Shown in pieces: positions 54,817 to 59,906 of a stretch of 64,000 nt of DNA. Numbering within the stretch: the first letter of the stretch is position 1; the number at the start of each line of letters is the position of its first letter. Source of the DNA: a virus (taxonomy: Duplodnaviria; Caudoviricetes); the IMG/VR virus record IMGVR_UViG_3300033074_001348, positions 13,313 through 77,312 of that record. The stretch is one strand, 5' to 3'. The position numbers and the translations under genes were made by a program. The notes below the pieces were generated by a model. It was not told where the DNA came from, did not search any database, and was given only the letters and a program-made list of their open reading frames with translations.

Positions 54817-55749
54817 CTATCTGGGTTCTTCTGTAAATGGTGGCTGAAAGGAATTAAGGTACAATGGCGAACCCATCCCTTTAGAAATCATCTCTTTAGC
54901 AGTTTTAATATAAACATCTGGCTTTTGTGATAAGTAGGCATTGGAATGGATAAGCGAAATGATAAATTCTTCTGCTTGAGAAGCCATCAAATAGTTTGCT
55001 GCCACAAATCCGCCAAGTGTATAAGCGGCTGCACGAAGCTGTGGGTGTCCGTTATCAACAATAGCGTCAATACACTTACGGACAATATTAAATGATTTGG
55101 TAGTTAAAACTGGTGTTTGATCGTATTTGTATTGCGGTATATTGGGAGCTATTAGCGGCATATATTTCTCTTGCCACCACCAAGCATTTTCTCTATACCT
55201 CAAAAGTGGATCATAGCTAAGAAAAAGAGGGAGCACCGGGTTTTGCGGAGCAAGATCAAACCCAATATATTGCCGCATTTCGTTTGTGCTAAGTGCATGG
55301 TAATAAGCCTTATACTCATTAACAGTCTTGCATTGCGGAATACGAACTAAAGCCCTAACTCCTCGAGCCGACGGGGAAAGCCAAGCTGCTATAATAAAAT
55401 CATAGGTTTCAAAAAGGTAGTTTTTTAGGTCTTTGGCAGTACCGACTGAAGGTAGGTGGTCAAAATCAAGTGGCATAAGTCCGGTAAATTCGGTTATATC
55501 CATATACCGTCTACGTCCAGTAATACGAACTGCGGGGGTGAAAGAAAAAAGGGAAGTCTTTAGTTGCGCCTTCAGCCCCATGTCGCCATCCATCTCAGCC
55601 TGAGCAATTTGAGCAAAAATTGACTTGATGTAGGGCTTGGGCTTGGAGATAGCACGAAGAAATTGGGAAAGTGTTACCTCGCCAAGTGGCTTAGAGCGTT
55701 TGATGTCCGCATCATAATACGGGAAGGAGATACTGTCGAAAGTGTTCAT
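54817..55749 (-). CDS. BT4734/VirE-N-like primase-polymerase domain protein
   Basis: TGLMPLDFDHL and WLSPSARGVRALV. Confidence 0.7.
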   Translation of the reverse strand: MNTFDSISFPYYDADIKRSKPLGEVTLSQFLRAISKPKPYIKSIFAQIAQAEMDGDMGLKAQLKTSLFSFTPAVRITGRRRYMDITEFTGLMPLDFDHLPSVGTAKDLKNYLFETYDFIIAAWLSPSARGVRALVRIPQCKTVNEYKAYYHALSTNEMRQYIGFDLAPQNPVLPLFLSYDPLLRYRENAWWWQEKYMPLIAPNIPQYKYDQTPVLTTKSFNIVRKCIDAIVDNGHPQLRAAAYTLGGFVAANYLMASQAEEFIISLIHSNAYLSQKPDVYIKTAKEMISKGMGSPLYLNSFQPPFTEEPR

Positions 55750-55956
55750 GCTGAGTAAAATAAGAAACCCTCACCCATATACAGTTGCCGTCCAATCTCA
55801 AAGCAAGCCTCGGTATTAGAACTGTATAGGGTAAGGGTGGGTAAATTTCTTTGCTGCGTAGGCATGAACGTAAAAGATTGGTAACGGCAGGGCAAATATA
55901 AAAGGCGAAAAGGGGATTTCCTAATCCCGGCTAAAATAAAGTTTTGGAAGGAGGGA

Positions 55957-56244
55957 CTAAAACTCCACCCTCCCAAATATCCGTATCCACCTGCCAAAAG
56001 TATTGTCAATATACTTCCCGGTGTCGTCAATATTTACAAAGTGAATGATGGGTCGCATTTCTTCTAAGTAAAAGCACATGGCAATTTTCTGATGGCCGTC
56101 ATTAAGCGCATCATGCACGGTGTTCATCTGACACATATAATTCCAACGACAAACACCTGCTGTTACGGTGATTTTTGGCATCGTTGCTAAGATGTGGTTG
56201 GTGATGATGGAGTAGGCGAGTTTACAAATTATTATACTTTTCAA
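55957..56244 (-). CDS. Hypothetical protein
   Basis: ORF downstream of the methyltransferase. Confidence 0.4.
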   Translation of the reverse strand: MKSIIICKLAYSIITNHILATMPKITVTAGVCRWNYMCQMNTVHDALNDGHQKIAMCFYLEEMRPIIHFVNIDDTGKYIDNTFGRWIRIFGRVEF

Positions 56245-57700
56245 TTGCCTTAAATATTTGCAGAACCAGTTGGGGGACTACGGCATTTCCGTAGGCTTTG
56301 ATGGATTCTTGTCTGTGCCACGTTTCAAATTTTGAAGTTGCGGCTTCAAATCGCCTTGCTGCCAGTGCAATTTCATGTGGCAGGAATGACACAATGTTTC
56401 CAAGTTTTTCAGGTCGTTGTTTTTCCAGTTTCCGTCCTTGTGGTGAACGTCTAAATTCTCGGTGCTTTTGCAGGTAGCGCATTGTTTCTTTTGAGAATTT
56501 CTCGCTAAACGGTGAAAGCTGGATTTGTGGATCATTTCCGGTCTGATATAACTGCATTGTTTGGAACAGTATATCCTTTGATTCCAGCGCGTAAAATCTT
56601 CTAACCTTTTGCCAAACCTCCTCCTGTTGAATATGCTTCCACATTTCTGGCAGGTTTTCGATTCTGTTTTCCTTGCTTGTGTTGCTAATTTCATTGTATA
56701 ATTCTTTAGTTATATATCGAGCCAACCTATTGGAAATCCCATCATTTCGTTGACAAACAGGGGATTGAGTTGGGAAGTTTGCCCAGTAATTTCTCTGGCT
56801 CTCTTGACTAAAGAATCCTGATTTTCCAATCCCGTCACTTTCTCCCCGTAATCTGATGCCATCGGTGTCGGCAACATTCCTTGTGTAACCCATTTCGCTA
56901 CAGTTTCTTCCAAATTTCCTTTGTTCCTGTTCGCTATATTCACATTGTTCAGATCGCACCCATTTACTTGATTCCCTCTTGGTGTCGGTAACAATCCCAG
57001 ATCCATGAATTTCGTTTTCCCGTTCTGGTCGCATTCCTTCAATCCTTGTGTTTGTGGTGTCGGAAGTAACTGAACCAACCTTCCCAGTCCCACACTGCCG
57101 TCTGTTCCATTCTGATTGATCTTCCTTGGTAAACCGGATGTTTCCTTGTAGATGTCGTTCTTTCCAATTATTGCACCCGCCCCGGCATCTGATGATACTG
57201 GAGTAGGCAACAAACCAAATTCTGTCCCTTCTATGGGGAGCATTGACGGCACAAGCTGGAAGTAAAAACGGTGTGACTTCGTAGCCTTCATTTTCCAGAT
57301 CAGCCTGCACTTGGTCGAATACCAACCCTCCATTCCAATTAGTAAGGCCGCGAACGTTTTCGAAAAGGCACCATTCCGGGCGAACCTCCCGAATTGCTCT
57401 AAGACAGTCTGGCCACCCATAGCGGTCGTCTTCGGTACCGAGTCTTTTTCCTGCTGCGGAAAACGGTTGGCAGGGAAATCCTGCCACAAGGATTGTTGGC
57501 TCATTTTTATTTAACAGTTTGTTAATTATATTGTAATCAATTGTTTTAACATTGTCATGGTGAAATGCATCCGGCCAGTAATACTTTAAAACCGACCTTC
57601 CAAATGGATTAATTTCGCATGAGGAAACAACCTTCCACCCCATTAATTCAGCAGCATATTCGAAACCACCGACCCCGGAGAATAGACTAATTAGTTGCAT
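56222..57700 (-). CDS. DNA cytosine-5 methyltransferase with a long insertion (492 aa)
   Basis: LFSGVGG, AGFPCQPFS, ENV, RRDRIWF and AYGNAVVPQ motifs. Confidence 0.88.
   Translation of the reverse strand: MQLISLFSGVGGFEYAAELMGWKVVSSCEINPFGRSVLKYYWPDAFHHDNVKTIDYNIINKLLNKNEPTILVAGFPCQPFSAAGKRLGTEDDRYGWPDCLRAIREVRPEWCLFENVRGLTNWNGGLVFDQVQADLENEGYEVTPFLLPACAVNAPHRRDRIWFVAYSSIIRCRGGCNNWKERHLQGNIRFTKEDQSEWNRRQCGTGKVGSVTSDTTNTRIEGMRPERENEIHGSGIVTDTKRESSKWVRSEQCEYSEQEQRKFGRNCSEMGYTRNVADTDGIRLRGESDGIGKSGFFSQESQRNYWANFPTQSPVCQRNDGISNRLARYITKELYNEISNTSKENRIENLPEMWKHIQQEEVWQKVRRFYALESKDILFQTMQLYQTGNDPQIQLSPFSEKFSKETMRYLQKHREFRRSPQGRKLEKQRPEKLGNIVSFLPHEIALAARRFEAATSKFETWHRQESIKAYGNAVVPQLVLQIFKAIEKYNNL
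56278..56694 (-). CDS. HNH endonuclease nested in the alternative frame of the C5 methyltransferase
   Basis: CQKC...CSKQC Zn motifs and CATC...DVHHKDGNWKNNDLKNLETLCHSCH. Confidence 0.8.
   Translation of the reverse strand: MKLATQARKTESKTCQKCGSIFNRRRFGKRLEDFTRWNQRIYCSKQCSYIRPEMIHKSSFHRLARNSQKKQCATCKSTENLDVHHKDGNWKNNDLKNLETLCHSCHMKLHWQQGDLKPQLQNLKRGTDKNPSKPTEMP
56710..57504 (-). CDS. Alternative-frame partner of the C5 methyltransferase (LLPTP-repeat protein)
   Basis: 264-aa open frame with four LPTP repeats and C-terminal QLNPLFVNEMMGFPIGW, which resembles MTase motif IX. Confidence 0.7.
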   Translation of the reverse strand: MSQQSLWQDFPANRFPQQEKDSVPKTTAMGGQTVLEQFGRFARNGAFSKTFAALLIGMEGWYSTKCRLIWKMKATKSHRFYFQLVPSMLPIEGTEFGLLPTPVSSDAGAGAIIGKNDIYKETSGLPRKINQNGTDGSVGLGRLVQLLPTPQTQGLKECDQNGKTKFMDLGLLPTPRGNQVNGCDLNNVNIANRNKGNLEETVAKWVTQGMLPTPMASDYGEKVTGLENQDSLVKRAREITGQTSQLNPLFVNEMMGFPIGWLDI

Positions 57701-58209
57701 ATAAATAGCGATTCAGTATTTTGTTTACTATGCACCCAAATGTGGCACGGATCGCACAAGGAAATCCCATTATCCAATTCAAATCTTAATTCAGGGAAAT
57801 TGGACCATGAATAAATATGGTGCGCCCTTAGCGTTTTACCTTTGTCGTAACCACACATTTGACATACATATCCATCTCTTGCATAAATTCTCCTTCTCCA
57901 CCTATTTACTAACTTGATATCCCTTATCTCTCGATTTAAACTTTGTCCGTGCTTATAATTAATATTATTTTCTCCTGTCATCCATTGTCCGCCTCCGGAA
58001 TTAGGACCATTTTCACCTTTCATGTTTTTAACCCTACATTCCCATGAGCAATACTTCCACCCTTTTCTAACCTGAGACTTCACAATAGAGCAACTTTTAC
58101 CGCAGCCAGAACAATTTTTAGTTAATCTGGATTTGTTTACTCTCGAAGCGATTGCTTTTTGCAGGTTAAGAATGCTCGACTCTCTCCTACTTAATTTATT
58201 TACTTGCAT
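57691..58209 (-). CDS. HNH endonuclease (172 aa)
   Basis: RDGYVCQMCG...AHHIYSW...NGISLCDPCH. Confidence 0.8.
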   Translation of the reverse strand: MQVNKLSRRESSILNLQKAIASRVNKSRLTKNCSGCGKSCSIVKSQVRKGWKYCSWECRVKNMKGENGPNSGGGQWMTGENNINYKHGQSLNREIRDIKLVNRWRRRIYARDGYVCQMCGYDKGKTLRAHHIYSWSNFPELRFELDNGISLCDPCHIWVHSKQNTESLFICN

Positions 58210-58352
58210 AAAACTAAAAGCCCGGTCAAGGCTTCATCACAGGGCCGAAACTCATACTTAACAATGAGAATTTCCTGAGAATCCGCCCCGACCGGGCTGT
58301 ATATTGGAGAATAAATAACCTGAGTAATCATTGTTTTAAAGTTTCGGCACCG

Positions 58353-58360
58353 CAAACATA
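58353..58360 (-). promoter_or_regulatory. -7 element TATGTTTG
   Basis: TAnnTTTG upstream of the HNH/methyltransferase operon. Confidence 0.4.
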
Positions 58361-58618
58361 ATTGTTTTTTTTACAATGCCGTTTCATGTGAAATAATAAG
58401 TTATCAACAACCTATTTCCCTGATCTCCATTTAGTGATCTCGGTATAAATTGCGTTTTTCTCCTCAATGGAATAGCCGTCATCCCGTCATTGCATCGTTA
58501 AACTTATCCATGTGCACATCATAGAATTGTTTTAATAGTTCATCAATTTCTGACTGGATAAAACCTTCCTTGTGTTTAGTTGGGAAGGAGTAGACTTTTT
58601 CCTCTAATGATTGGGTGC

Positions 58619-58816
58619 TCATTTCTTATATTCCTCCAATATCATATAAAATCTGCCCATCACTTCTTCCCGTAACTTTTCATCGAACGGTATTCTGATC
58701 GAGGCTTTGTAAGTACCGCTCGGGAATTTGGAGTAGGGGGAGACAGGGGGAGTGGGTTTGGGTGGGGTGGGCTTCTTGGTTCTTAGTTTAACGGGCTTCT
58801 TAGTCTTTGACTTCAT
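58619..58816 (-). CDS. Small basic, possibly RHH-like, protein
   Basis: TYKASIRIPFDEKLREEV. Confidence 0.4.
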   Translation of the reverse strand: MKSKTKKPVKLRTKKPTPPKPTPPVSPYSKFPSGTYKASIRIPFDEKLREEVMGRFYMILEEYKK

Positions 58817-58865
58817 CTTCTTTTTTTGATTTATATATTTTAGTTATTCGGAATTTCTTAATAAC

Positions 58866-59906
58866 TCAATTAGACGAACCATACGCTATTTCTGCTCTTG
58901 GTCGTCTTTTGTATCCGTGTTTTTCAAATGCGTCAATCCACATTAACTTCCTGTCTGCATGACCAACACCGCAAGGTTGCAATCTGAAATGACCTTTAAC
59001 TGCAAATCCTTCTGTGCGAATTATTAGTTTATTCCAAGAAGAGTCAACAACATAAACTGTGTAATTAGATGTATTAGTGATCTTACCGTCTTTTTTATCT
59101 TTACCGTTATTGCGACCTTTTTCTAATATCGTTACTTCAATATCTCCAAGTTCAACGAATGTCATTATTTTTAGAATGCGATTAAATTCTGCCGCATATT
59201 TTGTGTTAAAGAAATATCCATTTTCGTTAAGATCAAAACCAAATTCAAAATAAATATTTTTTTCATTATTATAGTAACACCCTTTTATAAACCCAACCTG
59301 ACAAATAAATTTACAAGTCTCGTGTTTTCCCAAAAGATACAGATGATGTCCGAATGAAACATTTTTTAATGCCCTACTACTAAATGTATCTCCAATGCGA
59401 ATCATTTTTGAGCACTCTTCAACACCGTTACAGATAAGGTATTTTTTAGGCTCAATATCTTCAGGGCGCTTAAATATGGTTCTATCAATATGTTTCTCAA
59501 CTATTTTTTGCACCTCCCAAGCTCTGCCCCACTCCTTAACATCTGACGTATTTGTTATATCAGTATCAAAGGCATCATTCCACATCGTCGCAATTTCAGG
59601 ATTTATTCCATCGTCCCCTATAAGCGACTTTATTTTATCTTGTAACTTTCGATTTGACTCCAACGAACTTAAAAGAAATTCCCTGTGGGTGCTACACAGT
59701 TTAGTGAACGCAGAATAATCCTCTAATAGTAAGCCGAGTTGTGAGTTTTTGCTAATTATCATGCCCCCAAAGATAATGCATTCCGTCCCACGTGCGACAG
59801 TTGCATGAAAATTATTTCTCTCTGATAAGCAATACATTAGAGAACCCAAACTTGCGAAGTTCCTCTGCCCGGTACTTTTGAAGTGGCGTTTGTAGCGTCT
59901 TCTCAC
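58866..59906 (-). CDS. Hypothetical protein
   Basis: C-terminal VKGHFRLQPCG motif; the real start is probably near 59762. Confidence 0.55.
   Translation of the reverse strand: MRRRYKRHFKSTGQRNFASLGSLMYCLSERNNFHATVARGTECIIFGGMIISKNSQLGLLLEDYSAFTKLCSTHREFLLSSLESNRKLQDKIKSLIGDDGINPEIATMWNDAFDTDITNTSDVKEWGRAWEVQKIVEKHIDRTIFKRPEDIEPKKYLICNGVEECSKMIRIGDTFSSRALKNVSFGHHLYLLGKHETCKFICQVGFIKGCYYNNEKNIYFEFGFDLNENGYFFNTKYAAEFNRILKIMTFVELGDIEVTILEKGRNNGKDKKDGKITNTSNYTVYVVDSSWNKLIIRTEGFAVKGHFRLQPCGVGHADRKLMWIDAFEKHGYKRRPRAEIAYGSSN

Follow-up and report, generated by a model that had tools for sequence, protein, structure and literature searches.

The window analysed here, a 64,000-nucleotide (nt) stretch of a phage genome held as IMG/VR record IMGVR_UViG_3300033074_001348, carries on its minus strand a gene for a C5 cytosine methyltransferase in which two further open reading frames (ORFs) are embedded. 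We consider it probable that the locus encodes a methyltransferase laid out like M.EcoHK31I, with two subunits in two frames, and carries a mobile HNH endonuclease cassette that the larger subunit, alpha, reads through. Some 1.5 kb of DNA would most likely encode three proteins in two frames: the methyltransferase body, a nested second subunit, here called beta, and the mobile HNH nuclease. The alpha ORF (frame A, 492 amino acids) runs from 57700 to 56222, continuing through the region that codes for target recognition in beta and through the HNH insert. The beta ORF (frame B, 264 amino acids) occupies 57504 to 56710 and the HNH ORF (138 amino acids) 56694 to 56278; these two share one frame, +1 relative to alpha, and 15 nt separate the TAA of beta from the ATG of the HNH. 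The three minus-strand ORFs thus stand where the original prediction, made from the letters of the sequence, had placed them.

The methyltransferase frame

Frame A is recognised as a C5 methyltransferase by profile and by motif. It matches PF00145 (3.9e-40, residues 1-258), TIGR00675 dcm (3.6e-36, residues 4-486) and phrog_363 (4.5e-61), in agreement with the earlier claim that the 492-residue frame stays open from motif I to motif X. Motifs I (FxGxGG), IV (PCQ), VI (ENV), VIII (RxR) and X (GNxxxP) all lie in this one frame, which places the protein in the C5 class; the first four fall within residues 1-166 and motif X, as GNAVVPQ, at residues 471-477. The catalytic domain with motifs I-VIII extends over 57203..57700 on the minus strand, and leftwards of 57504 it is dual-coded with the N-terminal part of beta. 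AlphaFold2 (AF2) models residues 1-175 with a predicted local distance difference test score (pLDDT) mostly above 85, with short dips to ~55, and the modelled N-terminal domain resembles M.HhaI and M.HaeIII at E ~1e-9 over ~170 columns.

What does frame A encode between motifs VIII and X? The PF00145 match ends at profile position 228 of 324, and no recognisable motif IX is found in frame A between motifs VIII and X, so that the motif IX of a single-polypeptide enzyme is lacking there. Residues 176-323, the frame-A reading of the LLPTP-repeat region, are modelled by AF2 with a pLDDT of only 30-36. In four viral contigs with relatives of the gene (L011, L023, L077 and L079) the open part of frame A begins at motif IV (PCQ), the N-terminal part being in another frame or interrupted, which another insertion, a frameshift or an assembly error might explain.

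A probable nested second subunit

The +1 frame is kept open throughout the family. We fetched 80 viral loci with frame-A relatives and counted stop codons in 69 distinct genes, from motif IV to 12 codons before motif X, with the expected counts taken from synonymous shuffles. The +1 frame contains 5 stops against 430.6 expected, a deficit far greater than chance would produce, while the +2 frame contains 1257 against 1316. The +1 frame is without any stop in 64 of the 69 homologues, and each of the four insert-bearing genes has exactly one, situated between the LLPTP ORF and the HNH. This openness is enforced by codon choice, because Leu, Ile and Val NTA codons standing before A or G, which would create a +1 stop, are used 1 time in 864 inside the overlap versus 155 times in 259 upstream of the beta ORF.

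Codon-position entropy, computed over the 65 insert-free genes, locates a switch of the selected frame along the gene. The wobble position, that is, the codon position with the highest entropy, is the third position of frame A across motifs IV-VIII, passes to the third position of frame B from the first GLLPTP to MMGFPxxWT, and returns to the third position of frame A in the tail that precedes motif X. Within the beta segment ‘WAKTF..YFQL’ the entropy of frame-A position 3 is lowered to 0.60-0.73 bits, which is a sign of dual constraint. Beta as a whole comprises an N-terminal segment, an LLPTP-repeat target-recognition region and a motif-IX-like C-terminus. The latter, read from the sequence as LNPLFVNEMMGFPIGW at 56722..56769 (minus strand; the same bases give FPTQSPVCQRNDGIS in frame A), is encoded by frame B and has at ‘EMMGFPIGW’ both low entropy and frame-B wobble. 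Beta matches phrog_1008 ‘DNA methyltransferase’ at 1.2e-25, and homologues of the nested protein are plentiful in the databases (2296 ORFs), nearly all of them unnamed or labelled ‘hypothetical’. For one beta-like protein, P0190 of Flectobacillus, a search for contigs that encode it gave no result.

The LLPTP ORF had initially been taken for a second gene overprinted on the methyltransferase. The family-wide openness of the +1 frame and the frame-switching wobble point to a different nature of this ORF: it is most likely the methyltransferase's own second subunit, which unites the recognition part with the motif-IX-like segment, and not a foreign gene.

The LLPTP region (window 56779-57206, minus strand) is swapped or resized among strains. 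A 99.6% identical twin of the window, L155, has an extra repeat unit of 126 nt, and contigs in sequencing runs X3, X4, X6 and X18 carry other sequence in place of ~56780-57203, with breakpoints at the conserved end of motif VIII and at ‘TSQLNP’. Such strain-to-strain changes look like specificity shuffling in an unannotated frame. An NCBI protein of 317 amino acids (P0230) starts in frame A with motifs I-IV, crosses to frame B after ‘AAGK’ and ends with ‘MMGFPIGYLDI’; this fusion is probably due to a one-base indel or an assembly error in an insert-bearing relative.

The HNH insert and its empty allele

A public assembly, L154 (protein P0002), contains the allele without the insert. In place of the window's 414 nt, as delimited by blastn of L154 against the window (56318..56731, minus strand, alpha codons 324-461), this allele has 30 nt, and the net gain of 128 codons substantiates the insert of ~130 codons that had been suspected from the window alone. 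The identity of L154 to the window is 97.5% over 57086-56732, on one side of the site, 98.5% over 56317-56186, on the other, and just 78% in the N-terminal half. The left break falls directly after ‘MMGFP’ of beta and the right break at ‘HRQESIKAYGNA’ of alpha. The insert contributes a new end and stop for beta (‘IGWLDI*’), the 15-nt spacer and the HNH ORF up to ‘..NLKRG’. For its final 12 codons and its stop the HNH uses host sequence, formerly the tail and stop of beta (‘TDKNPSKPTEMP*’, shared by the window and the beta of L154). Downstream of the insert alpha is back in frame, with its C-terminus HRQESIKAYGNAVVPQ.. and motif X at 56222..56317 (minus strand), within the flank that matches L154. 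The insert opens with residues that are similar to the sequence lying downstream of the site.

The complete HNH nuclease proposed for the alternative frame is borne out by the 138-residue ORF, which matches phrog_1271 at 2e-12; two Cys4 zinc sites and the HH..N..N..H motif are invariant in an alignment of its relatives. Pfam scores stay under the gathering cut-offs (PF13392, 21.6 bits, 1.7e-4, versus a cut-off of 24.8; PF01844, 17.7 bits, 4.1e-3, versus 21.4), and membership in the HNH superfamily is therefore assigned on the PHROG match together with the conserved motif. Searched as a profile against the PDB, the HNH alignment gave marginal matches only (I-HmuI-type 1u3e, E 0.47). No intron family of any type was found by an Rfam scan of 55500-58800, even at E <= 1, and the frame-A insert sequence shows no intein-type junction residues or blocks.

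Selection within the insert

With the HNH alignment as query we retrieved 69 metagenomic and 4 genomic loci, by search patterns that favoured intact copies, so that decayed ones would be missed. In about nine-tenths of the loci with a recognisable HNH segment, down to an HNH identity of ~37-40%, frame A is open across the HNH and motif X follows downstream. We chose 46 distinct nested copies for their open frame A, noting that about nine in ten of the unselected loci are open too, with ~8 stops expected in each. In these 46 copies there is 1 frame-A stop against 365 expected, while the third frame has 398 against 345.

Codon-level statistics agree. Entropy at the third position of frame B is 1.33 bits, versus 0.97 and 0.98 at the other positions. 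In safe contexts T occupies the third position of 31% of HNH codons in four-fold families and of 67% in T/C families, and before AA, AG or GA, where a T would make a frame-A stop, it is found in 0 of 480 and 1 of 389 cases, respectively. The HNH frame is under purifying selection, and its synonymous choice avoids frame-A stops. Third-position entropy at conserved two-fold columns is 0.87 bits in the HNH versus 0.91 bits in the non-overlapped alpha tail; because, stop avoidance aside, synonymous change is about equally free in the HNH and in the tail, the frame-A residues of the insert appear to be hardly constrained, with only their openness selected.

Mobility of the nuclease

Filled and empty alleles occur side by side in nature. 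Contigs joining 56317 or 56313 to 56753, the empty form, coexist with filled contigs in runs X4 and X6 (wastewater and sludge, from different studies), and the twin L155 carries the insert. The HNH is absent from 65 of the 69 viral homologues. When its presence is mapped on the catalytic-domain tree, 8 changes of state are required, and well-supported branches force at least 3 of these; the window groups with insert-free genes. Loci L081 and L003 are 81% identical in the N-terminal domain and 54% in the HNH, whereas for the window and L081 the values are 58% and 76%; the HNH lineages do not track the catalytic domain. These population and phylogenetic data show the insert to be mobile, and we infer from them that it spreads by homing, with cutting of empty alleles and repair-mediated copying. 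The original prediction of a homing-type HNH that keeps its host gene intact by double coding and not by splicing fits the empty allele, the coexisting forms, the patchy tree, the stop avoidance and the lack of an Rfam intron, with homing itself the likely interpretation.

Relatives of the nuclease are found at other positions as well. In Spirosoma lacussanchae (L151, locus 1399-2860) a free-standing HNH gene with 45% identity starts in the last ~30 nt of an alpha/beta-type methyltransferase gene, which may be an alternative docking site of the same nuclease lineage. In Staphylococcus phage CUB-EPI_14 (gp45; L158, locus 642-2447) a stop-free insert placed immediately ahead of motif IX contains, in its +1 frame, a homologous HNH with 36% identity. 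The host gene in this case, annotated as a 601-residue methyltransferase, encodes a single-chain C5 enzyme with motifs IX and X both in frame A and no open +1 frame upstream.

A model of the locus and its alternatives

How could a nuclease gene settle in a methyltransferase gene without disrupting it? We propose that alpha supplies motifs I-VIII and X, that beta supplies LLPTP target recognition and the motif-IX-like segment, and that the two chains together would form the active enzyme. From motif VIII to motif X, alpha would be a stop-free, sequence-insensitive read-through dictated by beta, and already tolerant. The 414-nt cassette would have been copied in just after ‘MMGFP’ of beta without breaking either subunit, giving beta a new stop and, behind it, an HNH gene that ends in what was formerly the tail and stop of beta. 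Alpha would be translated through the stop-free cassette, gaining 128 extra residues, and would still reach motif X, RNA or protein splicing being unneeded. The HNH would then cut empty alleles and spread by repair-mediated copying. Its own translation could be served by ribosomes that end on beta and then restart: termination-reinitiation is a plausible route in the alpha/beta family because the HNH ATG lies 0-15 nt past the beta stop, in the same frame, in 44 of the 46 distinct copies. It is not the whole story, given that the HNH of CUB-EPI_14 exists without a beta frame.

Several observations sit uneasily with this model. Since the CUB-EPI_14 host has no beta frame, coupling to beta is no general requirement for expression of the HNH. 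Beta, searched against Pfam (E <= 10), NCBIfam and PDB profiles, returned no meaningful match, its motif IX is a putative assignment by motif likeness, and its AF2 model in isolation is weak (mean pLDDT 56, predicted template modelling score 0.26). The target-recognition domain (TRD) of M.EcoHK31I is placed in alpha by the literature, as presented in PMC2836561, whereas codon-position analysis places it in beta here. Runs labelled as RNA (X18-X20) yield small shares and contigs and are probably DNA. That nearly all nested HNH copies are intact fits a domesticated nuclease too, although the search patterns favour intact copies. Finally, AF2 predicts a confident all-helical bundle (pLDDT 84-95) for alpha residues ~331-460, the frame-A insert, which one would not expect of a mere spacer. 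The bundle could reflect conservation that the HNH imposes on the alignment, given that position 2 of frame A is position 1 of frame B and the pattern of polarity is carried over; alternatively, it may be an evolved spacer domain. A bolder version of the latter, which we regard as doubtful, is that the HNH lineage is a read-through-adapted cassette whose -1 frame evolved into a benign, folded helical spacer that can be inserted in frame into different C5 methyltransferases. If true, overprinting would have given birth to a protein domain that serves a selfish element, with hosts of the alpha/beta type, where it sits after motif IX, and the single-chain Staphylococcus phage enzyme, where it sits before motif IX.

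Could the HNH be a domesticated partner of the methyltransferase, for instance a methylation-sensitive nuclease in a minimal restriction-modification-like or exclusion module, kept for the benefit of the phage and not as a selfish homing gene? The purifying selection on its frame and its intactness in nearly all nested copies, to ~37-40% identity, would suit such a role, as would its physical locking to the methyltransferase and the position of its relatives beside or inside other C5 methyltransferases (Spirosoma, the Staphylococcus phage). We nevertheless find domestication unlikely: most viral homologues (65 of 69) and a near-identical allele do without the HNH, both forms inhabit the same samples, the HNH lineages do not follow the catalytic domain, and the excess of intact copies is what the search patterns favour. 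That the insert has killed the methyltransferase, leaving an inactive alpha and a nuclease that alone matters, might be suspected from 128 residues added directly before motif X, and methylases are dispensable for many phages according to the authors of the ShiLan study (PMC11855218), to which we return below. Selection against frame-A stops, however, persists as the HNH diverges to 37-40% identity, so translation to motif X still matters, and motif X and the catalytic motifs are intact; an inactive alpha is accordingly very improbable.

The order of selected frames, A-B-A, reproduces the canonical motif order VIII, TRD, IX and X, and in empty alleles ‘MMGFPxxW’ and ‘GNA’ are spaced much as motifs IX and X are canonically, which raises the question of whether a single polypeptide is made by two programmed ribosomal frameshifts, from A to B after motif VIII and back to A after motif IX, in place of a separate alpha and beta. 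The A-to-B fusion protein P0230 could be cited in its favour. A double frameshift, however, needs neither an open frame A through the TRD nor some 100 open frame-B codons over motifs IV-VIII, and codon choice keeps both; moreover, M.EcoHK31I, as described in PMC2836561, functions as two separately expressed proteins. We judge this scheme highly unlikely. Even less should be expected of an intron or intein that is removed, the open frame A being incidental, despite group I introns commonly carrying HNH genes and the start of the insert resembling the sequence downstream of the site, as it does in ShiLan. Neither an Rfam intron family at E <= 1 nor intein junction residues or blocks were detected, the same negative is reported for the ShiLan element (PMC11855218), and a sequence that is spliced out would have no need of the codon-level avoidance that leaves 1 frame-A stop against 365 expected. 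Removal by splicing is thus extremely improbable, and the two-subunit enzyme with a cassette read through by alpha remains our preferred account.

Genome context and neighbouring genes

The window comes from an IMG/VR record that represents the complete genome of a phage, 77 kb in length and equipped with tail, primase and helicase genes, and the phage occurs in wastewater and activated-sludge metagenomes. A blastn search of the locus against GenBank phages found nothing beyond short motif-level matches.

A second, free-standing HNH gene of 172 amino acids (57691-58209, minus strand; PF01844, 8.6e-7) precedes the methyltransferase gene and ends inside its first three codons. The nested HNH and this one are not closely related; BLASTP aligns 20 residues at E 0.008. 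L154 has ~120 nt in place of window 57704-58487, which makes the free-standing HNH an insertion/deletion difference as well. Contigs in runs X4 and X6 join 56205/56208 straight to 58584/58587, indicating that some related phages are without the methyltransferase and both HNH genes. Farther along, ~1 kb of the window (58763-59768), comprising most of a 346-residue ORF (58866-59906), is represented by ~30 nt in L155, which elsewhere is 94-99.6% identical. This ORF matches no Pfam or PHROG family.

Implications and comparison with known systems

The locus suggests that a homing-type nuclease can reside in a gene that bears essential motifs without recourse to an intron or intein, provided merely that the host frame is kept stop-free. 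The evidence for such an arrangement is unusually clean, with exact insertion boundaries against an empty allele, natural coexisting alleles and codon-level stop avoidance. A second implication concerns the host. A very large family of phage cytosine methyltransferases would appear to be a two-frame, two-protein enzyme, of which gene callers log one gene or a ‘hypothetical’ nested ORF. This is of relevance for annotation, for surveys of overlapping genes and for the prediction of methylation specificity, as the recognition part would lie in an unannotated frame and is swapped between strains.

Intronless homing HNH genes are known as free-standing genes beside or within their target genes, for example the T4-type mob/seg genes. 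The nested HNH resembles them in its location at a conserved target gene, in needing no intron or intein there and in its presence/absence polymorphism, but it differs in lying inside a coding sequence whose host frame reads through, so that the gene is neither split nor interrupted. The free-standing HNH of the window, which L154 lacks, and the Spirosoma relative recall such genes as well.

For the host enzyme, the closest parallel in layout is M.EcoHK31I of E. coli HK31 (Lee, Kam and Shaw 1995, as presented in PMC2836561), to which the original prediction aptly pointed. As described there, the coding sequence of its beta lies in a different frame, completely within the alpha gene, and beta has motif IX, alpha has motifs I-VIII together with motif X, and the two chains work when separately expressed. 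In the window, 57504..56710 lies inside 57700..56222 in the +1 frame, and is conserved open, a likeness drawn from layout, and its C-terminal segment may, by motif likeness, be a motif IX; the differences are a much larger beta (264 amino acids) and the addition of a third gene, the HNH. A similar arrangement has been annotated in the Paenibacillus larvae phage Rani (gp50/gp51, NC_029084), where a beta-like ORF, ‘g50 Internal gene’, lies wholly inside a DNA-cytosine methyltransferase gene. It is distantly related to the beta of the window (tblastn 8e-11, 30% identical over 57% of beta), and Rani is without the HNH insert. Mycobacterium phage KBG (L156) encodes in gp84, a ‘DNA methyltransferase’ of 237 amino acids, an unannotated +1 ORF with ‘WPTPTA’ and ‘EWLMGFPDGWT’, by which the two-frame layout extends to actinophages.

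For the nuclease, the nearest counterpart is the ShiLan domain (Arsenault, Gosselin and Gogarten 2025, PMC11855218; earlier PMC9957025), a stop-free insertion in a mycobacteriophage DNA methylase that hides an out-of-frame HNH. It is without intron or intein features, and its disjunct distribution among close relatives was interpreted as homing (PMC11855218). The insert of the window is likewise stop-free in the host frame, contains a complete out-of-frame HNH ORF, is disjunct in its presence and bears no intron or intein signature; in both elements the insert starts with a likeness to what lies downstream of the site. The differences lie in size and frame (138 amino acids in the +1 frame here, 195 amino acids in the ‘third’ frame in ShiLan), in the signals for translation (an ATG 15 nt after the nested beta stop and a stop borrowed from beta here, a GTG start and its own TAA in ShiLan) and in the host, for which the wastewater phage of the window has a two-frame C5 enzyme of the alpha/beta type; the comparison is one of features.

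Each component feature of the locus has thus already been published, for ShiLan or for M.EcoHK31I, and the locus combines them without constituting a new kind of system. What is new relative to ShiLan is the exact empty-site allele, the coexistence of both alleles in nature, the codon-level statistics of stop avoidance, the architecture in which the HNH start follows the beta stop, and the borrowed stop codon. Of these, the HNH start 0-15 nt after the beta stop offers, for the alpha/beta family, a testable answer to the question raised in the 2025 paper of how such a hidden nuclease is translated.

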